Source: an uncultured Rhodospirillales bacterium (GTDB taxonomy: Bacteria > Pseudomonadota > Alphaproteobacteria > Rhodospirillales > UBA2165). Taken from it: a DNA stretch of 64,000 nucleotides. Position 1 is the first letter of the stretch, and every line of letters starts with the position of its first letter. The translations under genes and the position numbers were made by a program. This document shows positions 21,202 to 51,225 of the stretch, piece by piece. The stretch is from contig CAJXKD010000001.1 of the NCBI GenBank assembly GCA_913055735.1, positions 1,453,099-1,517,098 on the forward strand, in the 5' to 3' direction. The notes under the pieces were generated by a model, which was given only the letters and a program-made list of their open reading frames with translations, did no database searches and was not told the origin of the DNA.

Positions 21202-21214
21202 CAGGATTTTCCTC

Positions 21215-29777: not shown

Positions 29778-29831
29778 GCTTCACCTCTTGCTTTGCCTCA
29801 AACGGCGGCTGTTCGTGCGTTCTCTTTACAC

Positions 29832-29864
29832 TTGACATATATTCTAATTTGCATATATTTGCAA
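29832..29864. promoter_or_regulatory. face-to-face overlapping divergent promoters and probable operator (blh-like gene <-> arsR-ygaP-sulP)
   Basis: Plus strand: TTGACA(29832-37)-N16-TATATT(29854-59). Minus strand: TTGCAA(29864-59)-N17-TATATG(29841-36). CATATATT occurs twice, 16 bp apart. Confidence 0.4.
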
Positions 29865-29866
29865 GT

Positions 29867-30789: not shown

Positions 30790-32517
30790 ATGACGTTGCG
30801 GACGATGGGGCGGTTTCTGCCCATCGTGCAGTGGCTGCCCCGTTATCGACGTGCCGATTTGTCGGCCGATACGTTGGCTGGTTTGATCGTCGCCATCATG
30901 CTGGTCCCGCAGGGCATGGCCTATGCCTTGCTTGCCGGCATGCCCCCGGAAACCGGTCTCTATGCCAGCATCGTTCCCTTGATCCTTTATGGCTTGCTCG
31001 GCAGCAGCCGGGCGCTGGCCGTGGGGCCGGTCGCCATCGTTTCGTTGATGGTAGCAAGCGCCGTCGGCGGCCTTGCCGAGACGGGCAGCGACGCATATCT
31101 TGCCGCCGCGCTGCTCCTGGCATTGCTCAGCGGGGTGCTGCTCATTGCCATGGGTGCCGCGCGACTCGGTTTCCTGGTCAATTTCATCAGTCATCCCGTC
31201 ATCTCCGGCTTCATCAGCGCGGCGGCACTGGTCATTGCGCTCAGCCAACTGAAGTACCTGTTGGGGCTCGACATTCCGCGCAGCCACCTGATCACCGATA
31301 CGCTGGCCTTCGCCGTACGTCACGTGGGGGACATCAACTGGGTGACCGCGGCGATCAGCGTCGCGGCGATTGCGTTGCTCGTCTATTGGGGGCCGGTAAC
31401 AAATGCCGTGCTTGGACGGATGGGCATCGGCCAGACGACGTGTGTGGCGGTATCGCGGGCGAGCCCCCTCGCCGCCGTGCTGGTCTCGACCGTTGTCGTT
31501 TGGGCGTTCCGCTTCGATCTCAGCGTCGGTGTGCGTATTGTCGGGGACATTCCGGCCGGACTGCCGCCGTTGACCATGCCGCCTTTTGACAGCGCGTTGT
31601 GGCTGGATCTGTTGCCCGCGGCCGCGCTGATCACCATCGTCGGCTTTCTCGAAAGCGTGTCCATCGCCAAGGCGCTGGCCAGCAAGCGCCGTCAGAAGAT
31701 CGACGCCAATCAGGAACTGGTGGCTTTGGGTGTCGCCAATCTCGGGGCGGCGTTCACCGGCGCTTATCCGGTTGCTGGCGGCTTCGGCCGGTCCATGGTC
31801 AATTTCACCGCCGGTGCGGTGACGCCCATTGCGTCCATCGTTACCGCGATTCTGATCGCGCTCTCCATTCTCGTGTTCACGCCCCTGTTCTATTTCCTGC
31901 CGACGGCGGTTCTGTCGGCGGTGATCGTCGTCGCGGTGGCGCGTTTGGTCGATGTCGCGACGTTGCGGCACGCCTGGGTTTACAACAAAGCGGATGCGGC
32001 CTCCCTCATCGCGACCTTCTTTGCCGTTTTGTCGCTCGGGGTCGAAATTGGCATCGTTACCGGGATCGGCCTGTCCCTGGTGTTGTATCTCTATCGCACC
32101 AGTAAGCCGCATGTCGCCATCGTCGGCCGCGTTGGTTCAAGCGAGCATTTCCGCAATGTTCTGCGCCATCAAGTACGCACCTGCCCCCACGTGTTGGCCA
32201 TGCGTATCGACGAAAGCCTCTATTTCGCCAACACCAACTATCTTGAGGACTATCTCCTGGCGAAGGTGGCCGACGATCGGCGCATCAAGCACGTCGTGCT
32301 GATTTGCAGCGCCATCAATTTCATCGATACCAGTGCCCTCGAGTCCCTCTTCCGGGTGATCAGCGAGCTAAAGGATGCCGGCGTTACGTTGCACCTGGCC
32401 GAGGTGAAGGGCCCGGTGATGGACCGCCTCAAAAAGACCGAGCTGTTGGATCATCTCCTGCCGGGTAAGGTGTTCCTGAGCACCCATGAGGCGATGACCG
32501 ACCTCGATTGCGTCTAA
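30790..32517 (+). CDS. SulP-family anion permease with C-terminal STAS domain
   Basis: 575 aa with WLPRYRRADLSADTLAGLIVAIMLVPQGMAYALLAG (SulP signature) and a STAS tail (...LHLAEVKGPVMDRLKK...). Confidence 0.9.
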   Translation: MTLRTMGRFLPIVQWLPRYRRADLSADTLAGLIVAIMLVPQGMAYALLAGMPPETGLYASIVPLILYGLLGSSRALAVGPVAIVSLMVASAVGGLAETGSDAYLAAALLLALLSGVLLIAMGAARLGFLVNFISHPVISGFISAAALVIALSQLKYLLGLDIPRSHLITDTLAFAVRHVGDINWVTAAISVAAIALLVYWGPVTNAVLGRMGIGQTTCVAVSRASPLAAVLVSTVVVWAFRFDLSVGVRIVGDIPAGLPPLTMPPFDSALWLDLLPAAALITIVGFLESVSIAKALASKRRQKIDANQELVALGVANLGAAFTGAYPVAGGFGRSMVNFTAGAVTPIASIVTAILIALSILVFTPLFYFLPTAVLSAVIVVAVARLVDVATLRHAWVYNKADAASLIATFFAVLSLGVEIGIVTGIGLSLVLYLYRTSKPHVAIVGRVGSSEHFRNVLRHQVRTCPHVLAMRIDESLYFANTNYLEDYLLAKVADDRRIKHVVLICSAINFIDTSALESLFRVISELKDAGVTLHLAEVKGPVMDRLKKTELLDHLLPGKVFLSTHEAMTDLDCV

Positions 32518-34445: not shown

Positions 34446-35702
34446 ATGGCGCGCGCATCCCTTCCCGTCGATCCCCCCATGTACGACCCGAAGTCGTTCG
34501 GCCTGACCAAGAAACAGGCCCAACTGACGGCCAAGGCCCGCAAGCTGGGCGCCGAGAAATTCGCGCCGCGTGCCGACAAGTGGGATCGTGAAGCCATCTT
34601 TCCCATGGAGAACTACAAGGATCTGCACAAAGCAGGCTTTCTCGGCATTTGTGTGCCGGAGAAGCATGGCGGTATCGGCGCGGATTACATGACCTATGCG
34701 CTGACGGCGGCGGAAATCGGCCGCTATTGCGGCACCACCTCGCTTACTTGGAACATGCACGTCAGTTCGTGTTTGTGGACCGGCGATCTCGCCGACGATC
34801 TCAAGATGACGGCGGCGCAACGCAAATCACACAACCGCCGCCGCGCCATTCACTACAAGCGCATCGTCGAGGACGGGGCCATTTACGCGCAGCCCTTTTC
34901 CGAAGGCGGTGCCGCGGCGGCCGGCGCCGCGCCGTTCGGCACCACGGCGACAAAGACCAAAGGCGGCTGGCTGATCAACGGCAAGAAGATTTTCGCTTCC
35001 CTCGCCGGGTCGGCGGACTATTACGGCGTGTTGTGCACGGAGAAGAAACCCAACCTGTCGCGCCGCGACACCATGTATGTGGCGGTGCCCGGCGATGCGG
35101 AGGGCGTGTCGGTCGTCGGCGATTGGGATCCGCTGGGTATGCGCGGCACCGTGTCGCGTAACCTGCTGTTTGACAATGTGTTCGTTCCCGATGATGCGGC
35201 GCTGATGCCCAAGGGCGTTTATTTCCTCGCCGCCACCCGCTGGCCGCACATGTTCCTCACGCTGACACCCACCTATATGGGTATCGCTCAGGCGGCCTAT
35301 GATTTCACGGTGAAGTATCTGCGCGGCGAAGCGCCGAACACGCCGCCCGTAAAACGTCGCATGTATCCGACCAAGCAGCACGCGATCGCCGAGATGCACA
35401 TGAAGCTGGAGCAGACCAAGGCGATTTGGTTCCAGGCCATCCGCGAGGCTGGCCCCAACCCGACCAAGGAACAGATATTGCGTGCCTACACGGCGCAATA
35501 TTCGGCGATGGAGAATGCCAACGAGCTTTGCCGCCTGGCCATCCGCACCTGCGGTGGGCAGTCGATGCTCAAGAGCCTGCCGCTGGAGCGTCTTTACCGC
35601 GATAGCCGTTGCGGTTCACTGATGTTGCCGTGGACTGCGGAAATCTGCGTCGACCGGCTGGGCCGCGAGGCGCTCTACAATCCGGGCGAAAGCGACGAAT
35701 GA
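34446..35702 (+). CDS. acyl-CoA-dehydrogenase-fold flavoprotein, non-canonical (MCAD-type catalytic Glu not evident)
   Basis: 418 aa with the ACAD N/M/C domain pattern (FLGICVPEKHGGIG..., ...GGQSMLKSLPLERLYRD...). The position of the usual YEGT motif reads LMLPWT. Confidence 0.8.
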   Translation: MARASLPVDPPMYDPKSFGLTKKQAQLTAKARKLGAEKFAPRADKWDREAIFPMENYKDLHKAGFLGICVPEKHGGIGADYMTYALTAAEIGRYCGTTSLTWNMHVSSCLWTGDLADDLKMTAAQRKSHNRRRAIHYKRIVEDGAIYAQPFSEGGAAAAGAAPFGTTATKTKGGWLINGKKIFASLAGSADYYGVLCTEKKPNLSRRDTMYVAVPGDAEGVSVVGDWDPLGMRGTVSRNLLFDNVFVPDDAALMPKGVYFLAATRWPHMFLTLTPTYMGIAQAAYDFTVKYLRGEAPNTPPVKRRMYPTKQHAIAEMHMKLEQTKAIWFQAIREAGPNPTKEQILRAYTAQYSAMENANELCRLAIRTCGGQSMLKSLPLERLYRDSRCGSLMLPWTAEICVDRLGREALYNPGESDE

Positions 35703-37234
35703 CCGATATCTCGCACTGGCTGAAAACGCATGCGGCCTTCGATCCGGAAAAGGTCGCACTGCGTCATGCCGGCGGCGAGGAAACCTACGCGCAGTTTGCT
35801 GATCAGGTTCGATGTCATGCGGCCATGCTGCAGCACGGGCTCGGCATCGGGCGCGGCGATCGTATTGCCTATCTCGGCCCAAATACCGCCGACTTCCTGT
35901 TTCTGTTTTTCGCCGCTGCACGCCTCGGCGCGATGTTTCTACCGCTCAATTGGCGCCTGGCACCGGGGGAACATGCCTATATCATCGCCGATGCGTCACC
36001 CAAGGCGGTGTTCTGCGATGCCAGTTTCATCGAGCATACGGACACTTTTCGGGGCCGGTATCCGACGATCGCCTTTGTCGATTGCAACGGCGGGACCGAC
36101 GGATGGAACTCTTTACGCGGCCTGCTCGATGACACGTCTGGCCAGGACGTGCCCCGATTGGGCGATCTCGCCGATCCCCTGTTGCTGGTCTATACATCAG
36201 GCACTACAGGACGCCCCAAAGGCGCGGTCCTCACCCAAAATGCGGTGCAGGTCAACGCGCTCAATAGCCTCCATATGCACGATCTGCGCAGCGACGACCG
36301 CATCCTCACGATGATCCCGTTGTTTCATGTGGGCGGACTTAATATTCACACGACACCCGCCTTCTATGCCGGCGCAACGGTGACCTTGCATGAACGGTTC
36401 GATCCCGGGATGGCGCTCAAGACTATCGAAGAAGAAAAAATTACCCTCACCGTTATGGTGCCGGCCGTCATTCAGGCGGCGATGAAACACCCAAAATGGG
36501 ACGCGGCCAATCTGTCGTCGTTGCGGATGCTGACCACCGGCTCGTCAATCGTGCCCTTGCCGCTGATCCAGGCGTTCCATGACCTTGGTGTTCCCGTGGT
36601 ACAGGTCTATGGCGCGACGGAAACAGCGCCCGTGGCGATATACCAGCGGGCCGCGGATGGGTTCCGCAAGCCCAGTTCGACCGGGAAGGCAGCGCTTCAC
36701 TGCGACGTACGGGTCGTAGACGACAACGGCCACGATGTGGCGCCCGGCGTATCGGGCGAGATCTGGGTGCGGGGCGGCAATATCCTGCGCGAATACTGGA
36801 ATAATCCCGACGCGACGGCGGCAGCCTTGACCGATGGTTGGTTCCATACCGGTGACGTCGGTTATCTGGATGAGGAAGGCGACTATTTCATCAATGACCG
36901 CAAGAAAGACGTGATTATCTCGGGCGGTGAAAACATTTATCCAGCCGAGGTGGAAGCGGTGCTACACGAAATGACGGAAATTGCCGATGCGGCGGTTGTC
37001 GGCCGAGCCGATGACCGGTGGGGAGAAGTACCAATTGCTGTCGTCGAAGCAAAGGAAGGTGCGCAGATCGACGTGGCCGCGATCCTCGGGCGTTTCGATG
37101 GTGTGCTGGCGCGCTTCAAGCATCCCAAGGACATCATCGTCGTAGACGCACTGCCGCGGAATGCCATGGGCAAGGTGCTGAAATACGAAGTGCGGGGCCT
37201 GGCGGTGAAAAGCCCGGATTACGCTGGGCAATAG
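35699..37234 (+). CDS. AMP-forming acyl-CoA ligase (ANL superfamily)
   Basis: ORF 35609..37234 trimmed to ATG 35699 (ATGA overlap with the ACAD stop). Motifs LLVYTSGTTGRPKG, YGATE, GWFHTGD and ISGGENIYPAEVE are present. Confidence 0.9.
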   Translation: MTDISHWLKTHAAFDPEKVALRHAGGEETYAQFADQVRCHAAMLQHGLGIGRGDRIAYLGPNTADFLFLFFAAARLGAMFLPLNWRLAPGEHAYIIADASPKAVFCDASFIEHTDTFRGRYPTIAFVDCNGGTDGWNSLRGLLDDTSGQDVPRLGDLADPLLLVYTSGTTGRPKGAVLTQNAVQVNALNSLHMHDLRSDDRILTMIPLFHVGGLNIHTTPAFYAGATVTLHERFDPGMALKTIEEEKITLTVMVPAVIQAAMKHPKWDAANLSSLRMLTTGSSIVPLPLIQAFHDLGVPVVQVYGATETAPVAIYQRAADGFRKPSSTGKAALHCDVRVVDDNGHDVAPGVSGEIWVRGGNILREYWNNPDATAAALTDGWFHTGDVGYLDEEGDYFINDRKKDVIISGGENIYPAEVEAVLHEMTEIADAAVVGRADDRWGEVPIAVVEAKEGAQIDVAAILGRFDGVLARFKHPKDIIVVDALPRNAMGKVLKYEVRGLAVKSPDYAGQ

Positions 37235-37515
37235 TTCTTGTGCAGAAAGCGTAAGAGCTTGGAGATCTTCTTTTTGGCCAGCGAATAATAAATGGTCTGC
37301 CCGTCGCGGCGGGTTTTGACCAAACCGTCCTTGCGCAGCAGAGCGAGCTGCTGGGACATGGCCTGTTCGCGAACGTCGAGCAACTTGGCCAATTCGCCGA
37401 CGGAAGATTCCCCTTCGACAAGCCGGCATAGGATCAACAGCCGATTGCGGTTGGACAGAACCTTCATAAGGTCCGAAACCTCCTCAGCGGATTTTTGCAT
37501 GTCTTTTAGGTTCAT
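37219..37515 (-). CDS. ArsR/SmtB-family regulator, two-Cys BigR/SqrR-like (copy 2)
   Basis: ORF 37219..37551 starts at a TTG. I trimmed it to ATG 37515 (MNLKDMQKS...), which aligns residue-for-residue with copy 1, including Cys30 (LILC) and Cys96 (NYC). Confidence 0.8.
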   Translation of the reverse strand: MNLKDMQKSAEEVSDLMKVLSNRNRLLILCRLVEGESSVGELAKLLDVREQAMSQQLALLRKDGLVKTRRDGQTIYYSLAKKKISKLLRFLHKNYCPA

Positions 37516-37601
37516 ATTTGCGAACCTATGATGATATCTATTTTCCGTCAAGCCGGATTGGTTGCGAAGCTCAGATTTTCAGGCCTCCGTTGAAAAAATC
37601 C

Positions 37602-37619
37602 CATTGATGCGCATCAATG
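37602..37619. promoter_or_regulatory. perfect 18-bp palindrome CATTGATGCGCATCAATG in the divergent intergenic region (operator candidate)
   Basis: Verified by hand as its own reverse complement. It lies between arsR copy 2 and the dehydrogenase/OFOR operon. Confidence 0.45.
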
Positions 37620-37686
37620 CGGTTAAAAGTCATTGTCCGCAAAATCGAGCCAAATTGCAGACTGCGGTCTGGGAGGACAGTGCGCC

Positions 37687-38844
37687 ATGGATGCTTCGAT
37701 GTATAAACCGGAGACGTCCGCCGCCGATATTAAGTCGCTCTTCGGTTTCGGCGACGGGCTTGGCCCCAACAAAGTGATCCACGTTCATGAAGACTCCATC
37801 GGCCTCGATGGGGTGCTGGTCGTCGACAATGTGGCGGCCGGCCCGTCTATCGGCGGTCTGCGCATGGCCCCCGACGTGACCACCGAGGAATGCTATCGCC
37901 TCGCGCGGGCGATGACCCTCAAGAACGCAGCGGCCGGGCTGCCGCACGGCGGCGGCAAGTCGGTGATTAAGGCGGACCCCCGTATGCCGGCGACCAAGAA
38001 GGAAACGCTGGTACGCGCCTTCGCCTGCGCTCTGCGCGGGGTCGAGGACTATATCTTCGGCCCTGATATGGGTACCAACGAACTTTGCATGGGCTGGGTG
38101 CGTGACGAGATCGGCCGGTCAGTCGGTCTGCCGCGTGCGGTCGGCGGTATTCCCTTGGACGACCTCGGAGCGACCGGCTGGGGCCTGCATCACGCGGTTA
38201 AGACGGCATTGGATTTCGTCGATATGAAGCTCGACGGCGCACGGGTCGTTGTTCAGGGGTTCGGTGCGGTGGGCTATCACGCGGCCCGTTTCCTCAAGGG
38301 TGACGGCGCCAAGCTAATCGCGGCTTCCGATTCCCAAGGCGGGATCCGAAACGATGAGGGTCTTGATGTTGCCGCCCTTCACGCCTTCAAACAAACCGGG
38401 AAGAGCGTCGCCGAATTCGACGGCGGCACACCGCTCGATCGTGACGATCTCATCGCTGTGCCTTGCGATATTTGGGTGCCGGCGGCGCGGCCCGACGTCA
38501 TTACTGCCGACAACGTGGACCGGTTGGAAGCGCGCTTGGTTGCGCAAGGGGCCAATATTCCGGTGACGCTGGAGGCGGAGAGGCGTTTGCACGAACGCAA
38601 TATTCTTAGCCTCCCCGATTTTATTGCCAATGCGGGCGGCGTGATCTGTGCCGCGATGGAATGGCACGAAGCGAGCGAATCGGCGGCGTTCCAGGCGATC
38701 GAAGACAAGATTACGCTCAATGTTCGCGAGGTGCTGGAGCGCGCGACGACGTCCGGCGAGTTGCCCCGAGACGCGGCGGTGACCATGGCTCAGGATCGCG
38801 TGCGGGCCGCGATGAATACCCGGCGTTGGAGAACGTTCTACTAA
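37687..38844 (+). CDS. Glu/Leu/Phe/Val-family amino-acid dehydrogenase
   Basis: ORF 37633..38844 trimmed to ATG 37687 behind GGGAGG. Motifs are GPSIGGLRM, LPHGGGKSVI (catalytic Lys region) and NAD fold VQGFGAVG. Confidence 0.85.
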   Translation: MDASMYKPETSAADIKSLFGFGDGLGPNKVIHVHEDSIGLDGVLVVDNVAAGPSIGGLRMAPDVTTEECYRLARAMTLKNAAAGLPHGGGKSVIKADPRMPATKKETLVRAFACALRGVEDYIFGPDMGTNELCMGWVRDEIGRSVGLPRAVGGIPLDDLGATGWGLHHAVKTALDFVDMKLDGARVVVQGFGAVGYHAARFLKGDGAKLIAASDSQGGIRNDEGLDVAALHAFKQTGKSVAEFDGGTPLDRDDLIAVPCDIWVPAARPDVITADNVDRLEARLVAQGANIPVTLEAERRLHERNILSLPDFIANAGGVICAAMEWHEASESAAFQAIEDKITLNVREVLERATTSGELPRDAAVTMAQDRVRAAMNTRRWRTFY

Positions 38845-38866
38845 ATCGCTTGGGAAGGAGGCATAG

Positions 38867-39799
38867 ATGTACCGGATCCGCTTTCATGGCCGTGGCGGCC
38901 AGGGAATGAAAACGGCGAGCCGCGTGCTCGGATCGGCCTTCTTTCACGAGGGCTTCGAAGTCCAGGATGCCCCGCGCTACGGCGCCGAGCGCCGGGGCGC
39001 GCCGATGAACGCCTATGTTCGCGCCGACCGGGCGCCGATTTACGAGCGCGGCATCATTCTGCGACCTGATCTTGTGATTGTTGCCGACGATACCTTGGTG
39101 CCGATCCCTGCCGCGGGCGTTTTGCAAGGGTTGGATAACCGGAGCGTTTTGTTGATCGACAGCGCCACACCGGAAGACGAATGGCGCAAACGCACCAACA
39201 TCGGTGGTCCCATACTCGTGCTGCCGTTGCCTGACACGGTCGATCGTTCCTCTCTGGCGATGATCGGAATTGCCTGTGCGGGGGCCGCCGCGCGTCTGAT
39301 CGGGGTAATTTCCGAAGACGCCCTCGAGCAAGCGGTGCGCGATGAGCTGGCGCCCTTGGGCGAGGCGGTCGTGGAGAAAAACATCCAAGCGGCCATGGCT
39401 GGTTATGCCGCCATGTCTGACCACGCAGGAACGGTTTCCGAGGGCGTTCCCGCTGCGGCCAGTGGCGCCGGTTCGCCGGACTGGGTGGACGTGCCGGTCG
39501 AAGAAGTGCGGCTTTCCGGTCCGGCTATTCATGCCGGGGCAACGTCGGTGGAGGTGCGCACAGGCCTATGGCGTACATTTCGGCCGGTGATCCATTACGA
39601 TCGCTGCAACCACTGCAACTGGGTTTGCAGCTCTTTCTGTCCGGATAACGCCATATCCGTTGCCGAAGATGGCCGCCCGGTGATCGATTATGATCACTGC
39701 AAGGGGTGCATGATCTGCGTCGTCCAATGTCCGCCGCATGCCATCGAGTCGGTTCTCGAGGTCGAGGCGGCAGCCGCGGAACGAAGGGGGTCGGCATGA
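38867..39799 (+). CDS. 2-oxoacid:ferredoxin oxidoreductase, fused gamma + delta (2x[4Fe-4S]) subunit
   Basis: The N-terminus IRFHGRGGQGMKTASRVLG is a gamma signature. The C-terminus carries CNHCNWVCSSFCP and CKGCMICVVQCP ferredoxin motifs. Confidence 0.85.
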   Translation: MYRIRFHGRGGQGMKTASRVLGSAFFHEGFEVQDAPRYGAERRGAPMNAYVRADRAPIYERGIILRPDLVIVADDTLVPIPAAGVLQGLDNRSVLLIDSATPEDEWRKRTNIGGPILVLPLPDTVDRSSLAMIGIACAGAAARLIGVISEDALEQAVRDELAPLGEAVVEKNIQAAMAGYAAMSDHAGTVSEGVPAAASGAGSPDWVDVPVEEVRLSGPAIHAGATSVEVRTGLWRTFRPVIHYDRCNHCNWVCSSFCPDNAISVAEDGRPVIDYDHCKGCMICVVQCPPHAIESVLEVEAAAAERRGSA

Positions 39800-41040
39800 C
39801 CCGCGCGCTGATCACCGGCAATGCCGCTGCCGCTTGGGGCGGGCGGTTGGCGCGTATGGATTACGTGCCGGCTTTCCCCATTACCCCGCAAACCGAAATC
39901 ATCGAAACCATCGCGAAATGGACCGAGCGTGGCGACATCGCCACACGCATGGTGATGTACGAATCCGAACACAGCATGATCACCGGGGCCGGTGCCGCGG
40001 CCGCCACCGGGGTTAGGGTATTTACCGCCACCTCCAGCCAGGGTCTGCTTTATGGGATGGAGATGCTCTACACCGTCGCGGGCTGGCGTGCCCCGTTTGT
40101 GCTGGTCAACGTTTCGCGTGGCTTGGCCTCGCCCATCACGCTTGAGCCCGATCACAACGACATCATGGCGGCGCGTGATAGCGGGTTCCTGCAAATCCAT
40201 TGCGCGACGTGTCAGGAGGTCGTCGACAGTGTGTTGATGGCCTACCGTCTTGGCGAGGATCATCGGGTACGCTTGCCTGTGATCGTCAACCTAGACGGTT
40301 TTTATCTGTCTTTCACCCGCGAGGCCGTGGACCTGCCGTCGGCCGACGCGGCGGCGGAATTCCTGCCCGCCTTCGATCCGCAAGGCACCGAATTTCGCGC
40401 CGGAAAGCCGGTGAGCCAGGCAGTCGCGGTCTTGGGAGGCGGCACCTATTCCTATTTCCGCTACGAACAGCATCTGGCCGCGCAGGCCGCACTTCCCGTT
40501 TATGACGAGGTTGCCGCCGAGTTCAACGACCGCTTCGGCCGTTTGCATCCGGCGATCGAGTCCTATCGGGCCGAAGATGCTGAGATGGTGTTCGTTATGA
40601 TGGGATCCTTTGCGACAAAGGCCAAGGACGCGGTGGACCGGCTGCGCGAGGCGGGTATCGCGGCGGGCCTTCTGCGCCCGCGTTTGTTCCGGCCGTTCCC
40701 GCGAGATGCGTTCCGGTCCGCCTTGGTGGGCAAGAAAGGCGTTGCGGTGATCGATCAGAACCTGTCCATGGGCATGGGGGGTGTGCTGCATTCGGAATTG
40801 GCGTCGGCACTTTACGGCGCCCCGGATGCCCCCCGCGCCTTGACCAGTTTCGTCGGCGGCCTGGGCGGACGCGATATCGCGCCGGCCGAATTCTATGAAA
40901 TGGCGCACGCGACCCTGCGGGCCGCTGAAACCGGCGAAACGCCGCCGCCACGCCTTATGTATACCCACAGCGAATTGCGCGAGATGCGCAAATTGCAGGC
41001 GGCCGCCCATGTGGAACGCCATGAACAGGATATTGCGTGA
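39796..41040 (+). CDS. 2-oxoacid:ferredoxin oxidoreductase, alpha subunit
   Basis: ORF 39706..41040 trimmed to ATG 39796 (ATGA overlap). MTRALITGNAAAAWGGRLARMDYVPAFPITPQTEI is typical of PorA/VorA. Confidence 0.85.
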   Translation: MTRALITGNAAAAWGGRLARMDYVPAFPITPQTEIIETIAKWTERGDIATRMVMYESEHSMITGAGAAAATGVRVFTATSSQGLLYGMEMLYTVAGWRAPFVLVNVSRGLASPITLEPDHNDIMAARDSGFLQIHCATCQEVVDSVLMAYRLGEDHRVRLPVIVNLDGFYLSFTREAVDLPSADAAAEFLPAFDPQGTEFRAGKPVSQAVAVLGGGTYSYFRYEQHLAAQAALPVYDEVAAEFNDRFGRLHPAIESYRAEDAEMVFVMMGSFATKAKDAVDRLREAGIAAGLLRPRLFRPFPRDAFRSALVGKKGVAVIDQNLSMGMGGVLHSELASALYGAPDAPRALTSFVGGLGGRDIAPAEFYEMAHATLRAAETGETPPPRLMYTHSELREMRKLQAAAHVERHEQDIA

Positions 41041-41975
41041 TGACCGACGTACATTTCCAACGCATGAAGGATCTTCCCTCGACGCATTTGCTTGGAGCTG
41101 GAACGGCCATGTGCGCCGGCTGCGGCGGCCTCGAGATGATCAAGGAGGTCTACGACGTCCTCGGCGAGAACACCGTGTTCGTCAATGCGGCGGGCTGCAT
41201 GACTTTGTTGTCGGTCTATCCGTTTACGCCGTTTCGAGGCTCTTGGCTCTACACCGCGATGGCGTCGTCGCCGGCGGGCGCGCAGGGCGTGCGCGATGCC
41301 CTCGATATCCTCAAAGCCAACGGCCGCATGACCGAGGAAGAAGACCTCGAGGTGGTGGTCCTTTCCGGCGATGGCTCGGCGTCGGGCATGGGCTTGTCGG
41401 CGACGTCGGGGGCGATCGATCGCGGCCTCGATTTCATTTATCTCTGTTACGACAACGAAGGCTACGGCAATACCGGCCAGCAAACGTCACCGGAATCGCC
41501 GCACGGTGCGCGTACCGCGACGGACGCCGTCGGTCCCGGCAACATCGGCTACAAGAAAGACTTGTTCTCCATCTGGGTAGCCAACAAACCCGCTTATGCC
41601 GCGACAGTCGTTGGCGCCGAACCACTCGATCTCGCCCGCAAGATCGAAAAGGCACACGAACTCGAGGGACCACGGCTTATTCTATCATTGGCGCCCTGCC
41701 CGACCGGCTGGGGCTATGATCCCGCGCATACCGTCGAAATTGGCCGCTTGGCGGTGAAAACCGGCGTTTGGCCGCTGAAGGAATATGTCGACGGCAAAGT
41801 CGTGCATACGCGCCATCCCGGAAAACGAACGCCGGTCGAAGCCTACCTCGAGACCCAGGATCGTTTCCGCCATCTGTTTGAACCGGTGCGCAACGACAAG
41901 GTGATCGCCGAAATTCAGGCGCGGGTAGACGCCTATTGGGCCGAGGTGGACGTGGACGATGGCACAAAAGCCTGA
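41040..41975 (+). CDS. 2-oxoacid:ferredoxin oxidoreductase, beta (TPP-binding) subunit
   Basis: MCAGCGG (cluster Cys), GDGSASGMG...YDNEGYGNTGQQ (TPP motif). The start overlaps the alpha stop (GTGATG). Confidence 0.85.
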   Translation: MTDVHFQRMKDLPSTHLLGAGTAMCAGCGGLEMIKEVYDVLGENTVFVNAAGCMTLLSVYPFTPFRGSWLYTAMASSPAGAQGVRDALDILKANGRMTEEEDLEVVVLSGDGSASGMGLSATSGAIDRGLDFIYLCYDNEGYGNTGQQTSPESPHGARTATDAVGPGNIGYKKDLFSIWVANKPAYAATVVGAEPLDLARKIEKAHELEGPRLILSLAPCPTGWGYDPAHTVEIGRLAVKTGVWPLKEYVDGKVVHTRHPGKRTPVEAYLETQDRFRHLFEPVRNDKVIAEIQARVDAYWAEVDVDDGTKA

Positions 41976-43680
41976 TTCCCATCCGGACAAACTGACCAAG
42001 AGCTACTGCCATGTGGGCGGTGACCTTCCGCTTCTGGGCGACACCATCGACGAATGGTTCAAGAAAATCGTCGCACAGTTCCCCGACCGCGACGCCATCG
42101 TTTGCCGTCACCAAGACCGGTGCCTGACCTATCGCGAATTCGACGAGAAGATCGATGCAGCGGCAAAAGGGTTGCTGGGTCTGGGTTTCGCGCGCGGCGA
42201 CCGGATCGGTGTTTGGTCCACCGACAATATCGAATGGCTGATCCTCCAGATGGCGACGGCCCGCATTGGTGCCGTTCTGGTCAATATCAATCCGGCCTAC
42301 CGGCCCCGTGAGCTGGCCTATGCGCTGCAGACATCCGAAGTACAGGGCCTGTTCGTGATCCCGGCATTCAAGAGCAGCGACTATGTCGCGATGCTGCTCG
42401 AAATCATGCCGGAATTAAAAACGGCGGGTGAACCCGAATTCGAAGCCGAATTTCCCCATCTACGCCGCGTGGTGATTTTCGATCCCGCCTGTCCTGACGC
42501 GACGCATGCGCCCGCCGAAGGCTTCGTGACGTGGCAACGGTTTCTGAACGTCGGCCAAACCATCTCTTCTGCCTTGTACCATCAAGCAACCACGGGCCTC
42601 GATGCCGATGACGACATCAATATCCAATACACATCGGGCACGACTGGATTTCCCAAGGCTGTGGTGCTGACCCACCATAATATTCTCAACAACGCCTATT
42701 TTACGGCGCGGGCCATGCGCTTCACCGAACAGGATCGGCTTTGTGTGCCGGTGCCGTTCTATCATTGCTTCGGCATGGTGTTGTCCAACCTGTTATGCTT
42801 TTCCGTCGGCGCCTGCCTGGTGATCCCCGCCGAGCACTTCGATCCTTTGGCGGTGCTGGAAGCGATCGATGCGGAAAAATGCACCGCGTTGCATGGTGTG
42901 CCGACCATGTTCATCGCCGAACTGGAGCATCCCCGGTACGCGGAGTTCGACCTTTCCAGCCTTCGCACGGGCATTATGGCCGGCGCGCCGTGCCCGCCCG
43001 AGTTGATGACACGGGTGATGAAGGACCTGCATTGCCCCGAAATTCTGATCGGCTATGGCCAGACAGAAGCATCGCCGATCACCCATTTGACCCGTCCCGA
43101 CGACAGTTTGGAGCGGCGCACCGAAACCGTCGGCACGAACCTGCCTCATCAGGAAGTGAAGATCATCGATCCCGACGGGCGTACGCTGCCCATCGGCGAT
43201 ATCGGCGAAGTCTGCTTTCGCGGCTATCACGTGATGCGTGGTTATTACGGCAATGAAGAAGCGACGGCCAAGACCATTGATTCCGCCGGGTGGCTTCATT
43301 CCGGCGATCTCGGCGCCATGGACGCGGATGGCTACGTGCGGATTACCGGCCGCCTCAAGGATATGATCATCCGCGGTGGCGAAAATATCTATCCGGCGGA
43401 GATCGAAGCCTTTTTGTTTACTCATCCGAAGATCGCACAAGTCGCGGTATTCGGCGTGCCGGACGAACGGATGGGTGAAGAGGTTGCCGCCTGGGTTCAA
43501 TTGCACGAAGGCAAAACGATGACGGCGGAGGAACTAACGAATTTTTGTGCTGGCGAGATCGCGCATTTCAAAGTTCCCAAGACCATCCGTTTCGTCGATG
43601 GGTTCCCCATGACGGTAACCGGCAAGCTTCAAAAATTCCGCATGCGCGAAATTATGGCGGAAGAACGCGGCGCGGCTTAA
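41959..43680 (+). CDS. AMP-forming acyl-CoA synthetase (ANL superfamily, medium/branched-chain-like)
   Basis: 573 aa with IQYTSGTTGFPKAV, GYGQTE, GWLHSGD and IIRGGENIYPAEIE. The start overlaps the beta-subunit gene by 17 nt. Confidence 0.9.
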   Translation: MAQKPDSHPDKLTKSYCHVGGDLPLLGDTIDEWFKKIVAQFPDRDAIVCRHQDRCLTYREFDEKIDAAAKGLLGLGFARGDRIGVWSTDNIEWLILQMATARIGAVLVNINPAYRPRELAYALQTSEVQGLFVIPAFKSSDYVAMLLEIMPELKTAGEPEFEAEFPHLRRVVIFDPACPDATHAPAEGFVTWQRFLNVGQTISSALYHQATTGLDADDDINIQYTSGTTGFPKAVVLTHHNILNNAYFTARAMRFTEQDRLCVPVPFYHCFGMVLSNLLCFSVGACLVIPAEHFDPLAVLEAIDAEKCTALHGVPTMFIAELEHPRYAEFDLSSLRTGIMAGAPCPPELMTRVMKDLHCPEILIGYGQTEASPITHLTRPDDSLERRTETVGTNLPHQEVKIIDPDGRTLPIGDIGEVCFRGYHVMRGYYGNEEATAKTIDSAGWLHSGDLGAMDADGYVRITGRLKDMIIRGGENIYPAEIEAFLFTHPKIAQVAVFGVPDERMGEEVAAWVQLHEGKTMTAEELTNFCAGEIAHFKVPKTIRFVDGFPMTVTGKLQKFRMREIMAEERGAA

Positions 43681-43698
43681 ATATACCTTCCGTCTGGC

Positions 43699-43739
43699 GC
43701 AAATATATACTTGCGAAGGTATGAAGGTAAGAATATATT
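43699..43739 (+). promoter_or_regulatory. candidate sqr promoter (TTGCGA-N17-TATATT) overlapped by near-palindrome GCAAATATATACTTGC
   Basis: -35 at 43711-16 and -10 at 43734-39. The 16-bp element at 43699-43714 is 14/16 self-complementary. Further ATATATT cores occur at 43733-39 and 43784-90. Confidence 0.35.
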
Positions 43740-43855
43740 ATTAGCTGATTATACGCCTTGTGACCGCGCCGCGCGGACCAAACATATATTAATAAGCCTC
43801 ATTTTGAGGTGCGCGACGATGGGATGGGGGAGCCTTCCGGGAAAGGAGTCTGAAC

Positions 43856-45145
43856 ATGTCTCACATCGTCATTCTAGGGGCCGGTCTGGGTGGTATCCCC
43901 ATGGCCTATGAAATGCGCGCGCAACTCGGCAAGGAAGATCGTCTGACGGTCATTTCCGACCGTGACCATTTTCAGTTCACACCGTCCAATCCGTGGCTCG
44001 CCGTCAATTGGCGGAAACCCGACCAAATAACAGTCAAGCTCGAGCCTATTTTCAAAAAACGCAAAATAGGATTCCATTCGGTCGGTGCCAAAAGGGTCGT
44101 GCCTGAGAAAAACCAAGTTGAGCTCAACGATGGCCAAGTTGTCGATTACGACTATCTCGTGATCGCAACAGGGCCCGAACTCGCCTTCGACGAGATCGAC
44201 GGGTTGGGACCGCATACCGGCTTCACCCAATCGATCTGTACGGTTGAACATGCCACGACGGCATCGGAGGCCTGGGAAAAGTTCGTCAAAAATCCGGGGC
44301 CCATCATCATCGGTGCGGTGCAGGGGGCGTCCTGCTTCGGCCCTGCTTACGAGTTTGCGTTCATCGTCGATACGGAGTTGCGCCGCCGCAAGCTGCGTGA
44401 CCAGGTGCCCATTACTTATGTAACTCCGGAGCCCTACATCGGACATTTGGGCTTGGACGGGGTCGGCGATACCAAGTCGATGTTGGAATCCGAATTCCGC
44501 CAGCGCCACATCAAATGGATCACCAACGCCAGCGTCGAAAAGGTCGCCGATGGCACCATGACCGTGGTTGAACACAACGCAGATGGCGAAGAAAAAGAAC
44601 GTCACGACCTGCCCTTCGGTTACAGCATGATGCTGCCGGCGTTCCGCGGCATTCCGGCTGTGTTCGGTATTGAGGGGCTGACCAATCCGCGCGGTTTCAT
44701 CACCATCGACGAGTTCCAGCGGAACCAAAAGTATCAGAACGTGTACTCGGTGGGTGTCTGCGTCGCCATCGCGCCGCCGGAGGCGACCCCTGTCGCCACT
44801 GGCGTTCCCAAGACCGGGTTTATGATCGAAAGCATGGTGACGGCCGCCGTGCATAACATTCGCCAGGCAATGGATGGTAAGGATCCAACGCATAAAGCCA
44901 CCTGGAATGCCCTTTGCCTCGCCGATTTCGGCGACACGGGCGTGGCCTTCCTCGCCATGCCTCAAATTCCGCCACGCAACGTCAGCTGGGCGTCCGAAGG
45001 CAAATGGGTCCATCTCGCCAAGATCGCGTTCGAGAAATACTTTTTGCGCAAGGTGCGGACGGGTAACGTCGATCCCATCGTCGAGAAGTACGTACTCAAG
45101 CTGCTCGGCATTGATAAACTCAAGACACCGGCGCCCGGCGAGTAA
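43856..45145 (+). CDS. sqr: sulfide:quinone oxidoreductase (type-I-like SQR)
   Basis: 429 aa. FAD fold is IVILGAGLGG. Three Cys sit in SQR-like contexts (QSICTVEH, GASCFGPAYE, NALCLADFGD). RBS is AAGGAG. Confidence 0.85.
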   Translation: MSHIVILGAGLGGIPMAYEMRAQLGKEDRLTVISDRDHFQFTPSNPWLAVNWRKPDQITVKLEPIFKKRKIGFHSVGAKRVVPEKNQVELNDGQVVDYDYLVIATGPELAFDEIDGLGPHTGFTQSICTVEHATTASEAWEKFVKNPGPIIIGAVQGASCFGPAYEFAFIVDTELRRRKLRDQVPITYVTPEPYIGHLGLDGVGDTKSMLESEFRQRHIKWITNASVEKVADGTMTVVEHNADGEEKERHDLPFGYSMMLPAFRGIPAVFGIEGLTNPRGFITIDEFQRNQKYQNVYSVGVCVAIAPPEATPVATGVPKTGFMIESMVTAAVHNIRQAMDGKDPTHKATWNALCLADFGDTGVAFLAMPQIPPRNVSWASEGKWVHLAKIAFEKYFLRKVRTGNVDPIVEKYVLKLLGIDKLKTPAPGE

Positions 45146-45163: not shown

Positions 45164-46153
45164 ATGTATCGAATCTTTCGTTTTGGACGACGGCTCGCCA
45201 GCGCCTTGGCCATGTTTTTCGTGCTGGCTCATGGCGCTGTCGCGGCGGAAACCTTCGCCGTTACGGTGTCGCAGATCGACGACCGTAAAGCCGTATTTGC
45301 TACCGTGCAAAGCGTCGATCAGACCGTTGCCCGAACTCAGATCGGTGGCACTATCCGAGAGCTGACAGTTGATGAGGGGGCCCCCGTTTTTCACGGGCAG
45401 ATCATCGCTCGTGTCCACGATCCGAAGCTGGCGTTGCAGATATCGGCGCTTCAGGCACGCAAAAAATCCCTAGAGGCCCAACTCAAACTCGCGACCATTG
45501 AAATGGAGCGGGCACGTGATCTGCGCCGTAGCGGCGTGGGAAGCCAAGCGCGCCTTGACGACGCACAAACCCAACTCGACGTGGTGACGTCCGATCTTGC
45601 GGCGTTAAAAGCCGAGATCAAAGTCATTGAGCAACAAGTAACCGAAGGCGACGTGCTGGCACCAACGGACGGGCGTGTTCTGAAGGTGCATGTCACCGAC
45701 GGTAGTGTCGTGCTTCCAGGCGACATCGTCGCGACCATCGCAACCGAGACTTATATACTGCGTCTTCACCTGCCCGAGCGGCACGCGCGGTATATTTCGC
45801 CCGACGACCGCGTCCTCGTCGGCACGCGGGGCATGGAAACGGTCGCGCAGGATCTGGTCGAAGGCCGTGTCCGCCAGGTTTATCCCGAAATGGAAGATGG
45901 CCGTGTCGTTGCCGATGTGGAGGTTCACGGCCTTGGCGATTTCTTCGTCGGGGAACGCACTCGCGTTTATGTGGCGACCGGCAAGCGCGAGGCTATCATC
46001 GTGCCCGAGGGCTATATTTATCAGCGTTTCGGCGTCAGCTTCGCCCGTCTCGAGAACGGCAAGGAAGTGGCGGTTCGGGTCGGTTTGCCGGTAGACGGCG
46101 GCCTTGAAATCCTCGCCGGCTTGCGTCCCGGAGACGTTTTGGTGCGTCCATGA
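45164..46153 (+). CDS. RND efflux periplasmic adaptor (MFP/HlyD family)
   Basis: Signal/anchor, coiled-coil segment (LQARKKSLEAQLKLATIEMERARDL...), and beta-barrel C-terminal part. It begins 18 nt after the sqr stop. Confidence 0.85.
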   Translation: MYRIFRFGRRLASALAMFFVLAHGAVAAETFAVTVSQIDDRKAVFATVQSVDQTVARTQIGGTIRELTVDEGAPVFHGQIIARVHDPKLALQISALQARKKSLEAQLKLATIEMERARDLRRSGVGSQARLDDAQTQLDVVTSDLAALKAEIKVIEQQVTEGDVLAPTDGRVLKVHVTDGSVVLPGDIVATIATETYILRLHLPERHARYISPDDRVLVGTRGMETVAQDLVEGRVRQVYPEMEDGRVVADVEVHGLGDFFVGERTRVYVATGKREAIIVPEGYIYQRFGVSFARLENGKEVAVRVGLPVDGGLEILAGLRPGDVLVRP

Positions 46154-49100
46154 AGCTGGGAATCTCGGGCGGGATCACCCGCGCTTTTATCCAATCACCG
46201 CTGACCCCGCTGTTGATGATCGCGGCATTCCTGATGGGTGGGATCGCGCTCTGGGATCTTCCGCGTGAAGAGGAACCGCAGATCAGCGTGCCCATGGTCG
46301 ACATCATGGTCGAGGCCCCCGGTTTGCGCGCCGTCGACGCTGTCGAATTGGTGACGGAGCCGCTGGAAGACATCGTCAAGGGCATTGACGCGGTCGAGCA
46401 TGTGTACTCCCGCACCGAAGACGACCGCGTCCTCGTAACTGCGCGCTTTTTTGTCGGCACCGATGAAGACCGAGCCATCTTGCGGGTTCACGAAGACGTC
46501 CGCGCCAACCTCAACCGGATTCCCGTCGGCATTCCAGAGCCGCTGATCATCGGGCGCGGCATCAATGATGTCGCGATCATCACACTGACCTTGTTTCCCA
46601 AGGACGCCACCGATGACCGATGGACCGACAACACGCTTTACCGCCTCGCCGACGAGTTACAACACGAATTGATCAAGGTGAAGGATTCCGGCCTTACCTA
46701 TATTGTTGGTGGCCGGCCCGATCAAATCCGGATCGAGCCCGATCCGGAGCGGCTGTCGCTCTATGGCATCACCCTCAATCAACTCGTCGAAAAGGTGCGC
46801 AACGCCAATCGCTCCTTCCTCGCGGGGGCGTTGCGCGAAACCAATGCCGAGGTGCCCGTGTTTGCCGGGCAGACCCTGCGCGGCGTACCCGATGTCGGTT
46901 TGCTCACGATTACCAGCCGTGACGGTCGGCCGGTCTACGTCAAGGATGTGGCGAATATCGTTGTCGGCGCCGAGCCGCCCGACAGCCGGGCTTGGCATTT
47001 GACGCCGACCCTCGACGGTTTCGACCGCCGCCCGGCGGTGACCATCGCGTTCGCCAAGCGCCAAGGGGCCAATGCCGTTACCGTCTCCGAGGAACTGCTC
47101 GCCCGGCTCGACATGGTCCGGGAACGCCTCTTGCCGGAGGGCGTCGAAGTCGCGGTCACCCGCAACTACGGCGAGACGGCCCGCGACAAAGCGGACGAGT
47201 TGCTGTCACACCTTCTCGGCGCCACGGTGGTGATCGTTCTGATCATCGCCGTGTTTATCGGCTGGCGCGAGGGCATCGTGGTCATGGTGGTGATCCCCGC
47301 GACCATCCTGCTGACCTTCTTCTCGGCGTGGCTGATGGGCTTCACTATCAACCGGGTCAGTCTGTTCGCGCTCATTTTCGCCATCGGTATTCTGGTCGAC
47401 GACGCCATCGTGGTGGTGGAGAACATCGTCCGCCATTGGCATATGGACGACGACCGTAGCATCGTCGCCGCCGCTATCGACGCGGTGGCCGAAGTCGGCA
47501 ACCCGACGATCATCGCGACGTTGACGGTCATTTCCGCGCTGCTGCCCATGATGTTTGTTTCCGGCCTCATGGGCCCCTATATGAGCCCCATTCCCGCCAA
47601 CGCGTCGGCGGCAATGGTGTTCTCCTTCTTCGTGGCCGTCGTCATCACGCCGTGGCTTCTCGTCAAGCTGCATGGCCTGATGTCGCGCGGCAAAAAGAAA
47701 GACGGGCATGCCGCCGAGGAGGAAAACGCCCTCGGCCGGATCTACCGGGGTTTGGCGCGGCCCCTGGTCAAAGGCCGCGCCCCGTCACTGCTGTTCCTGT
47801 TGATCGTGGCGGTGGCGACGGTGGCCTCCATGGGACTGTTCGTCAGCAAGGATGTCGTCGTCAAACTGCTGCCCTTCGACAACAAATCCGAACTTCAGGT
47901 GGTTGTCGATCTTCCCGAGGGCAGCAGTTTGGAAGCGACCGAACGTACCTTGATGGCGGCCGCCGACCGGCTGGTCACGATCCCGGAACTTTCGAACATT
48001 CAGCTGTATGCCGGTGCGTCGGCGCCATTCGGCTTCAATGGCCTGGTGCGGCAGTTCTATCTGCGCACCCGGGCGGAGCTCGGCGATCTGCAGGTCAACC
48101 TGCTGCCCAAGGAAGAGCGCGACCGGACGAGCCATGTGGTCGCGCTCGAGGTGCGGGAGCTTCTAAAGGATCTGCCTACGCCTGAAGGCACCAGCATCAA
48201 GGTGGTGGAAGTGCCGCCGGGCCCGCCGGTTTGGGCGACATTGCTGGCGGAAGTTTATGGCCCTGACGAACAAAGCCGCCGGTCGGCGGCCATGCAGGTC
48301 CGCGAGGCCTTCTCCGCCGTCGATTTCGTCGTCGATATCGATGACAGCTATGGCGTGCCCAGTGAGCGCTTCCGCGTCGAGATCGATCAGGAGAATCTCG
48401 AGTTTCACGGTGTCGAGGAAGCGGATGTCTATGACACCATCGCGTCCCTGATCGGCGGGGTGAGCGTCGGCTACTCTCATCGCGGCCAGGGTGCCAATCC
48501 GGTAGAGATCGCCGTTCGCCTTCCCAATAGCGACCTGTTCCCGAGCGAACGTCTGTGGTCGACGCCGGTGCCGTCGCGGGGCGGGGTGGTTGAGTTGGGC
48601 GACGTGGTGCGGCTCAAGCGCGAACGTGCGTCCTATCCCCTGTTCCGCCGCGATGGGCGCTACGCCGAAATGGTGACGGCGGAACTCGCCGGGCAGTTCG
48701 AAGCGCCGATATATGGCATGCTCGCCGTCGAGGACGTCTTGAAAAACCGTTTCGGCGATGCAGGCCCGACGATCGGCTATCACGGCCAGCCCGCCGACGA
48801 ATCCAAGATCACGCTGCTTTGGGATGGGGAGTGGGAGGTGACCTATACGACCTTCCGCGATCTCGGGGCCGCCTTCGGTGTCGCCCTATTGGCCATTTAT
48901 CTCCTGGTGGTCGGGCAATTCTCGAGCTTCCGGCTGCCCATCGTCATTATGATCCCCATCCCCTTAACCTTCACCGGCATCCTTGTCGGTCACTGGCTGG
49001 TTGGGGCGGCGTTTACCGCGACGTCCATGATCGGCTTCATCGCCCTCGCCGGTATTATGGTGCGCAACTCGATTCTGTTGGTGGATTTCATCCGTGCCCG

Positions 49101-51203: not shown

Positions 51204-51225
51204 GCCAGTCACAGGGAGAAGAAGA

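Follow-up and report, generated by a model that had tools for sequence, protein, structure and literature searches.

A stretch of 64 kb from an uncultured Rhodospirillales bacterium (contig CAJXKD010000001.1, positions 1,453,099 to 1,517,098; hereafter the window) carries an operon for an amino-acid dehydrogenase, a 2-oxoacid:ferredoxin oxidoreductase (OFOR) and an AMP-forming acyl-CoA ligase. On one side it is flanked by the divergent regulator gene arsR1, and on the other by the sulfide:quinone oxidoreductase gene sqr. We think it probable that two unrelated units lie side by side here: an oxygen-controlled metabolic cassette, and a persulfide circuit of ArsR1 and its paralog ArsR2 that includes sqr. 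An initial annotation of the locus had proposed a single new regulon, with the operon wired to the persulfide sensor. What appears to be unstudied is the cassette, an uncharacterized OFOR subfamily with a fixed dehydrogenase partner, which sits beside an ordinary persulfide circuit.

Organization of the locus

Genes were called from the listing of open reading frames (ORFs), their translations, and Pfam and NCBIfam profile scans. Seven genes occupy 37219-45145 of the window:

37219-37515, minus strand: arsR1, a two-Cys ArsR/SmtB repressor of 98 aa (Pfam HTH_5, HTH_20)
37687-38844, plus strand: ELFV-family amino-acid dehydrogenase of 385 aa (Pfam ELFV_dehydrog, ELFV_dehydrog_N)
38867-39799, plus strand: OFOR gamma-delta fusion, with CoA-binding domain III and 2x[4Fe-4S] domain V (Pfam POR and Fer4)
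39796-41040, plus strand: OFOR alpha, domains I and II (Pfam POR_N and PFOR_II)
41040 (or from a GTG at 41037)-41975, plus strand: OFOR beta, with thiamine pyrophosphate (TPP)-binding domain VI and the proximal cluster (Pfam TPP_enzyme_C)
41959-43680, plus strand: AMP-forming acyl-CoA ligase, an accessory member of the cassette (NCBIfam PRK12583, 896.6 bits against a cut-off of 832)
43856-45145, plus strand: sqr, for a sulfide:quinone oxidoreductase of type I (full-length match of 495 bits to the Acidithiobacillus ferrooxidans SQR)

The junctions of the five operon genes were read directly from the sequence. A gap of 22 nt separates the dehydrogenase from the gamma-delta gene, gamma-delta and alpha share an ATGA overlap, alpha and beta meet at GTGATG, and beta and the ligase overlap by 17 nt. 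By our own reading a purine-rich run that resembles a Shine-Dalgarno sequence lies just 5′ of each start. The gene identities, positions, junctions and tight packing given in the initial annotation were all borne out by the ORFs, the profiles and the junctions themselves, as was a genuine type I sqr downstream of the operon. The three-step chemistry of the operon, which connects amino acid, 2-oxoacid, acyl-CoA and acid, also holds. A separate promoter for the ligase would have weakened the claim of a five-gene unit, but a promoter scan of the beta/ligase junction (41900-41960) found no promoter-like sites. A terminator scan found no convincing intrinsic terminator between the ligase and sqr.

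Conservation and distribution of the cassette

In a search with the alpha subunit, 7991 of 8000 scored candidates matched (E ≤ 0.001), and the best 120 listed were 73-77% identical. A scan of one genome per species yielded 80 loci. Two contigs of metagenome-assembled genomes (MAGs) bring the set to 82 loci from other genomes. Alpha subunits are 67-77% identical between phyla, and the cassette is found in at least 80 species as well as in metagenomes. The dehydrogenase gene is directly upstream of the OFOR in 57 of the 60 other loci with enough flanking sequence, with the same four-gene order. In 43 of 65 other loci the next gene after beta encodes a ligase. About one third of the loci keep the conserved core without it, and the genes that come after beta in these loci are unrelated (an amidase, a dihydroorotate dehydrogenase, an MFS transporter and others).

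When up to four flanking ORFs per side were clustered across the 82 loci, no cluster was represented in more than six of them. Because nothing else is kept on either flank, the unit consists of the dehydrogenase, gamma-delta, alpha, beta and an optional ligase, placed in unrelated contexts. The loci compared here indicate a cassette that is self-contained and horizontally spread. Thus, of the gene neighborhood described in the initial annotation, the dehydrogenase-OFOR(-ligase) order is conserved and the adjacency of arsR and sqr is not.

The hosts found in the 80-locus scan include Sedimenticola, Thiodiazotropha, Sulfuricella, Thiobacillus, Ectothiorhodospiraceae, Chromatiaceae, Sulfurovum and Sulfurimonadaceae. 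Further hosts are Competibacteraceae, Crenothrix, Rhodospirillaceae, Burkholderiales, Desulfobacterota (including SEEP-SRB2), Geobacteraceae, Chlorobiota and Gaiellales. Many of these hosts, among them the first four named as well as Chromatiaceae and Sulfurovum, are key organisms of the sulfur cycle.

We did not find a described dehydrogenase-OFOR-ligase cluster in the open-access literature. Public annotations name the cassette OFOR pyruvate synthase or pyruvate:ferredoxin oxidoreductase (POR). A three-gene OFOR cluster in Thiocapsa, with a gamma-type subunit, alpha and beta, is listed simply as POR (PMC10892978) and is presumably the same cassette.

An FNR/FixK-type box upstream of the operon

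The spacer between arsR1 and the dehydrogenase contains a perfect 18-bp palindrome, CATTGATGCGCATCAATG, at 37602-37619. Within it is the core TTGAT-GCGC-ATCAA. Two features are placed here:

37604-37617, plus strand: perfect FNR/FixK/CRP-type box TTGATGCGCATCAA, matching the TTGAT-N4-ATCAA consensus
37640-37645, plus strand: candidate -10 hexamer CAAAAT, read from the sequence, which fits a box at -41.5

The box is one of only two perfect matches to the consensus in the window, and its center is 76.5 nt before the dehydrogenase ATG. It also recurs. We searched 230 nt upstream of the orthologous dehydrogenases at 62 loci, allowing up to one mismatch, with the other intergenic DNA of the same loci as background. 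Ten of the 62 upstream regions have a box, four of them perfect, where 1.9 would be expected (Poisson P about 3e-5). Most of the recurring boxes are centered 68-91 nt upstream of the alignment start, and the loci that have them are from alpha-, beta- and gammaproteobacterial MAGs.

The arrangement is compatible with a class II promoter, in which transcription would start at about 37652 and the 35-nt leader would carry a GGGAGGA ribosome-binding site. The candidate -10 hexamer was not picked up by a consensus promoter scan; such scans usually miss activator-dependent promoters. The likeness to FNR/FixK/Anr class II promoters extends to the perfect box, a distance compatible with a center at -41.5, a short leader, an oxygen-labile Fe-S enzyme as the target, and recurrence of the box in orthologous loci. 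Unlike those promoters, the operon has a weak -10, its regulator gene is outside the window, and its start site is a predicted one. From the perfect box at class II-compatible spacing we infer that an oxygen-responsive activator of the CRP/FNR family would switch on the oxygen-sensitive OFOR operon at low oxygen. To switch on an oxygen-labile Fe-S enzyme when oxygen is low is an ordinary regulatory scheme, and it recurs independently for this cassette. The low-oxygen or anoxic switch suggested in the initial annotation therefore survives as a general idea, by way of an oxygen-sensor box and not of the persulfide sensor.

The palindrome CATTGATGCGCATCAATG was also considered as a SqrR-like dyad, ATTG-N8-CAAT. 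This was rejected because it is a perfect FNR box and the arsR operators of other genomes are of a repeat type.

A second perfect FNR-like box is found at 53614, with one-mismatch boxes at 52971 and 53659. The genes around this cluster (52971-53672) encode Hsp20 (52452-52883, minus strand), an unknown protein of 183 aa (53003-53554, minus strand) and a zinc alcohol dehydrogenase (53722-54753, plus strand). The cluster hints at a local low-oxygen regulon.

ArsR1, ArsR2 and a proposed persulfide circuit

ArsR1 scores 84.9 bits against the NCBIfam HTH_metalloreg model, above the cut-off of 55, and 98.6 bits against BigR, for which the cut-off is 155. It is therefore a member of the clade and not a BigR ortholog. 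Its best relatives of solved structure are HlyU (88.5 bits), BigR (79.5 bits) and SqrR (78.5 bits), with YgaV also among them. C30 in alpha2 and C96 in the C-terminal alpha5 align with the HlyU/BigR cysteine pair (C42/C108 in BigR, C41/C107 in SqrR), and both are invariant in 33 members of the ArsR1 family. Judged by its sequence, ArsR1 belongs to the BigR/SqrR/HlyU/YgaV clade of persulfide sensors, which upholds the two-Cys sensor type first assigned to it.

ArsR1 had been taken for the only adjacent regulator. It is not the only regulator of its type in the vicinity: about 7 kb upstream is a paralog that is 61% identical, arsR2, which diverges from a persulfide dioxygenase gene and is followed by rhodanese and SulP genes:

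28914-29777, minus strand: blh-type persulfide dioxygenase
29867-30214, plus strand: arsR2
30204-30767, plus strand: YgaP-type rhodanese
30790-32517, plus strand: SulP/STAS transporter

ArsR1 and ArsR2 share the stretch SQQLALLRKDG, which is taken to be the DNA-recognition helix. Their named relatives are in Kiloniellales, Rhodospirillales and Geminicoccaceae. NCBIfam gives only a weak family match for the sqr product. Its alignment to the A. ferrooxidans SQR shows that the three catalytic Cys contexts are kept (QSICTV, GASCFGPAYE and WNALC).

The foreign arsR promoters, when aligned on the start codon, share TTGACA, three 8-bp TATATTCA-like direct repeats, and a GCAAGT that abuts the ATG. This pattern suggests a leaderless promoter with the operator inside it. 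The same pattern is found in the window at 29827-29869 (arsR2) and 37513-37553 (arsR1), and the arsR1 architecture is common to about 45 foreign arsR promoters. Two of the resulting predictions flank the operon:

37516-37553, minus strand: predicted leaderless arsR1 promoter with autoregulatory operator (TTGACG, 8-bp TATATTC-like repeats, GCAAAT-ATG)
43709-43740, minus strand: predicted ArsR-family operator of three 8-bp repeats, in the ligase-sqr intergenic region (matrix score 28.5, second best)

A 32-nt weight matrix, built from the 45 foreign promoters only, was used to scan the window on both strands, and only three sites stand out: the arsR2 promoter in the arsR2/blh intergenic region (29835-29866; 36.0, the top score), the sqr promoter (28.5) and the arsR1 promoter (37516-37547; 17.7, the fifth-best score in the window). 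The next unrelated site scores 12.4. The score at sqr exceeds the training median of 26.3, and this predicted operator covers a predicted sigma-70-like promoter on the plus strand, TTGCGA-17-TATATT (43711-43739). The best score before the dehydrogenase, in 37560-37686, is negligible. Operator boxes are shared among the sqr site, the arsR2 promoter and the foreign arsR promoters; ArsR1, ArsR2 or both may bind them.

Much of this resembles the known BigR, SqrR, YgaV and HlyU regulons, including the fold, the aligned cysteine pair, the predicted autoregulatory operator and the predicted operator over the sqr promoter. The gene arsR2 is in the textbook arrangement with blh, rhodanese and transporter genes. 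In contrast to regulons of the BigR/SqrR type, arsR1 has no co-transcribed sulfur gene, and its BigR score is below the cut-off. The operator differs as well: the SqrR operator is quoted as an ATTC-N8-GAAT dyad (PMC9774250), whereas the sites here look like three TATATTCA-like 8-bp direct repeats. The minus strand at 43709-43745 resembles a complete arsR-type promoter that faces away from sqr, in which GCAAGT is followed by ATA, not ATG. The sqr operator may be what remains of an ancient divergent arsR-sqr pair, which the arrangement of arsR1 and the cassette later entered.

ArsR1 and ArsR2 would act as repressors at the predicted leaderless promoters of their own genes and, at sqr, over the stretch from -35 to -10, in a circuit that comprises sqr and the blh/rhodanese/SulP set. 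Since the predicted operators are at the arsR and sqr promoters, sulfide or persulfide would derepress sqr and the blh/rhodanese/SulP genes, and not the OFOR operon.

Is the operon under ArsR1 control?

The alternative is that ArsR1 represses the divergent operon and persulfide releases it, so that sulfide would trigger ferredoxin-linked 2-oxoacid metabolism in coordination with sqr. The layout invites this reading. arsR1 is divergent and 171 nt from the dehydrogenase start, it encodes a genuine two-Cys persulfide-type ArsR, and sqr follows the operon with no predicted terminator between. Most cassette hosts are from sulfidic habitats. Persulfide-sensing ArsRs have also been reported to affect anaerobic respiratory or biosynthetic genes, namely YgaV (PMC9774250) and sHdrR/SoxR (PMC12423496); given these precedents, a link between a persulfide ArsR and an OFOR would not be new in kind.

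The conservation of the neighborhood argues against it from both directions. No relative of ArsR1, ArsR2 or SQR was found within 10 kb of the cassette at any of the 82 other loci, even by tblastn at E ≤ 0.05. We also surveyed 85 metagenome loci with ArsR relatives 55-74% identical, and none of them had the dehydrogenase, gamma-delta, beta or sqr. A YgaP-type rhodanese is present in 29 of the 85, and the closest ArsR1 relatives (70-74% identity) adjoin a gene for a rhodanese, a YgaP-type rhodanese, a peroxiredoxin or an aminotransferase. The match to the operator matrix is confined to the 32 nt proximal to arsR1, at least 100 nt upstream of the predicted start site of the operon, and the operon bears its own, independently recurring FNR-type box in the interval where the matrix score is negligible. 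We therefore consider ArsR1 control of the operon quite improbable. The adjacency of arsR1 and the operon is probably a local gene order limited to this lineage, and the regulon put forward in the initial annotation is probably coincidental.

At two of the ArsR loci there is a distant OFOR-alpha relative, 28% identical, about 2 kb upstream of arsR on the minus strand (L146, 907-2031; L147, 1115-2110). It is probably an unrelated 2-oxoacid oxidoreductase.

Several points weigh against our preferred reading, that of an oxygen-controlled cassette beside a separate persulfide circuit. The box is present in about 16% of the orthologous loci, so that FNR control would be limited to certain lineages. 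There is no FNR/FixK gene in the window, and the activator is assumed to be encoded elsewhere. The start site and -10 element of the operon, like the leaderless arsR promoter, are predictions made from sequence. From a site 65-95 bp upstream of the FNR box, an ArsR dimer could still affect the divergent promoter, and YgaV has been reported to bind far upstream of katG (PMC9774250). As no terminator is predicted between the ligase gene and sqr, transcription could run on from one unit into the other and link them. Lastly, the OFOR scores highest against pyruvate enzymes, as described below. Taken as proposed, the control logic looks conventional, with an FNR-type box before an oxygen-labile enzyme and an ArsR-type operator before sqr.

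The amino-acid dehydrogenase

The dehydrogenase falls far below every NCBIfam equivalog cut-off. Against solved structures it scores 182 bits with hexameric glutamate dehydrogenases and 144 bits with leucine dehydrogenases (LeuDH). Its pocket was aligned to LeuDH 1LEH, with a reference sequence that differs from the PDB chain at a few of 364 residues (about 98% identity). The catalytic Lys80, the carboxylate-binding Lys68 and Asp115 (LeuDH numbering) are kept and are invariant in 64 cassette dehydrogenases, and the translation contains GFGAVG, the GxGxxG motif of a dinucleotide fold. The side-chain pocket reads L40 to I, A113 to G, V291 kept as V, and V294 to A. Across the 64 enzymes the same positions are I in 60, G or A in 32 each, V in all 64, and A in 61.

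The γ-carboxylate of glutamate is held by K89 and S380 in the Clostridium glutamate dehydrogenase, which we take to be equivalent to LeuDH positions L40 and V294. The Lys/Ser signature is thus missing from nearly all cassette enzymes, with Ile (60/64) and Ala (61/64) in its place. Because these positions are hydrophobic, we read the protein as a dehydrogenase of neutral or hydrophobic amino acids with an unusual pocket; on this evidence, it is not a glutamate dehydrogenase. The window separately encodes an NAD-specific large glutamate dehydrogenase of 1717 aa (58367-63520), so the cassette enzyme is an extra enzyme and not the glutamate dehydrogenase of the cell.

The cassette dehydrogenase shares K68, K80, D115 and a hydrophobic side-chain pocket with leucine, valine and phenylalanine dehydrogenases (1LEH), and its size of about 385 aa with the short ELFV enzymes. 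It differs from LeuDH in being only 28% identical, in scoring higher against the hexameric glutamate dehydrogenases, and in a pocket with G/A at 113 and A at 294 that is not typical of LeuDH. The protein also has an ASDS motif. This motif is found in NAD and NADP enzymes alike, and we draw no conclusion from it about the cofactor.

The OFOR and the pyruvate question

Pfam domains account for the full set: I, II, III, V with 2x[4Fe-4S], and VI with TPP and the proximal cluster. By its domain content the OFOR has everything needed to interconvert 2-oxoacids and acyl-CoAs with ferredoxin. The gamma-delta protein scores 124.7 bits against NCBIfam PorC_KorC and 88.9 bits against PorD_KorD, each above the subfamily cut-off. 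It also matches the fused delta model of oxalate oxidoreductase (OOR) over its full length, with 280 residues matched, and its translation has the cysteine motifs CxxCxxxCxxxCP and CxxCxxCxxxCP. Alpha scores 359.8 bits against PorA_Arch (cut-off 550), 273 against VOR, 267 against Pad and 238 against OOR; in the PDB comparison it gives 243 bits with the Methanosarcina acetivorans POR and 205 bits with OOR. Beta scores 248.3 bits against PorB (cut-off 405), 235 against the VorB-type model and 205 against OOR beta, all below the cut-offs. No substrate-class equivalog can be assigned. POR is the best match but below its cut-off, and VOR, OOR, Pad, KOR and IOR are lower. Since all the equivalog cut-offs are missed, the OFOR constitutes a distinct subfamily.

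Two relatives deserve comparison. The archaeal-type PorABCD/VorABCD enzymes (M. acetivorans POR, PDB 9BT4) have domains I and II in alpha, III in gamma, V in delta and VI in beta, and they give the best hidden Markov model and structure-sequence matches. Unlike them, the cassette has gamma and delta fused, for a total of three polypeptides, and it misses the equivalog cut-offs widely. An ELFV dehydrogenase gene almost always precedes the cassette OFOR, and we found no such description for a POR or VOR. The OOR of Moorella thermoacetica (PDB 5C4I) also has three genes and a fused gamma-delta, but every subunit of the cassette OFOR scores lower against OOR than against POR/VOR. The cassette alpha has a conserved FPITPQTE that reads like the YPITP of pyruvate enzymes; at this motif position OOR presumably has Arg31.

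These scores bring in the possibility of an ordinary pyruvate node, in which the ligase makes acetyl-CoA from acetate, a POR interconverts acetyl-CoA plus CO2 with pyruvate, and the dehydrogenase interconverts pyruvate and alanine. Each OFOR subunit scores best against POR models (PorA_Arch 360 against VOR 273, PorB 248 against 235, PorC 110), the nearest structure is the M. acetivorans POR, and public annotations say pyruvate synthase or POR (PMC10892978). The same scores are far under the POR equivalog cut-offs (360 against 550, 248 against 405). The dehydrogenase pocket of I, G/A, V and A looks, from the sizes of the residues, at least as roomy as that of LeuDH and not tailored to a methyl group. 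To our knowledge, the known alanine dehydrogenases are in a different family from ELFV. The ligase belongs to PRK12583, and the other matches listed for it are fatty-acid, aromatic-acid and malonyl-CoA ligases, with no acetate--CoA ligase among them. We regard the pyruvate node as unlikely. It had been anticipated in the initial annotation that an OFOR close to ordinary POR would weaken the amino-acid interpretation. The OFOR is nearest to archaeal-type POR but reaches no equivalog cut-off, and the near-obligate linkage to the dehydrogenase keeps the amino-acid interpretation in place.

The ligase and the direction of the pathway

The ligase is above the cut-off of PRK12583, a model that leaves the substrate undefined. 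The PDB comparison gave no close solved homolog of it. As a whole, the cassette would form a node in which a neutral or hydrophobic amino acid, a 2-oxoacid and an acyl-CoA are interconverted and a free acid enters at the acyl-CoA.

We lean, tentatively, toward a cassette that runs mainly in the reductive direction under anoxia and makes amino acids from short or branched (or aryl) fermentation acids. We do so because most hosts are sulfur-oxidizing or sediment autotrophs, many hosts being autotrophs from sulfidic, acid-rich sediments, and because all three steps are used. The acid would be converted to acyl-CoA, carboxylated with ferredoxin as the reductant to the 2-oxoacid, and reductively aminated to the amino acid.

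In the opposite direction, the cassette could be catabolic and replace the NAD-linked 2-oxoacid dehydrogenase complexes at low oxygen, taking amino acids to acyl-CoA with the ligase as a convergent entry. In about one third of the loci the conserved core does without the ligase. In this genome the neighbors include an acyl-CoA dehydrogenase, a second ligase, CoA-transferases and a thiolase-like gene, and this acyl-CoA-catabolic setting makes the oxidative, convergent-entry reading nearly as likely as the reductive one. A further hint is the Pseudomonas putida CoA ligase PP_4063, which we assume to be of the same family as the cassette ligase. According to fitness data, PP_4063 may activate isovalerate, and it is numbered directly before the isovaleryl-CoA dehydrogenase PP_4064 (bioRxiv 10.1101/2020.07.04.188060). 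Against a catabolic role, no downstream catabolic genes are conserved beside the cassette. Many of the hosts are also chemolithoautotrophs, in which little amino-acid catabolism would be expected. The oxidative direction is in our view a plausible if somewhat less probable one than the reductive direction that we favor; the plain pyruvate/alanine/acetate node, less probable again, overlaps both.

A broader version of the reductive reading would make the cassette a widely transferred pathway by which sulfur-oxidizing, phototrophic and sediment bacteria make amino acids under anoxia from the fatty or aryl acids released by fermentation. In this general form it is doubtful. Reports of reductive-carboxylation routes to amino acids in Chromatium, Rhodospirillum and rumen bacteria go back decades, and the cassette, if the pathway is true, would give these routes a gene basis.

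The cassette itself merits attention, as a tightly conserved set of a dehydrogenase, a three-polypeptide OFOR and a ligase that is routinely auto-annotated as pyruvate synthase. Knowing its substrate and direction would alter metabolic reconstructions of its hosts with respect to mixotrophy, amino-acid scavenging and heterotrophic CO2 fixation. It deserves biochemical characterization.

Other features of the window

An Rfam scan of the window for RNA leaders and riboswitches gave a tRNA-Gly only. This tRNA-Gly (GCC), at 28164-28238, is located immediately before the stretch of sulfur, acyl-CoA, OFOR, sqr and RND genes. It could mark the edge of an integrated island; the GC content shows no clear boundary.

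The region is rich in acyl-CoA metabolism. Upstream of arsR1, genes for an acyl-CoA dehydrogenase and the second AMP-forming ligase overlap or are closely adjacent (34446-37234). The start of this ligase is uncertain, with an ORF from 35609 and a called gene from about 35699. It converges on arsR1, and the gene ends overlap by 16 nt. CoA-transferase, ChsH2-like and thiolase-like genes are found at 49347-52386. Between these and sqr is an RND efflux pair (45164-49350), which begins 18 nt after sqr with a membrane-fusion protein followed by a pump of 1066 aa. The pair may share a transcript with sqr, and it might export a sulfur or organic species in connection with sulfide stress. Farther away, the window contains three tandem Porin_4 genes (3767-7822) and two tandem ammonium transporter genes (18144-21228).

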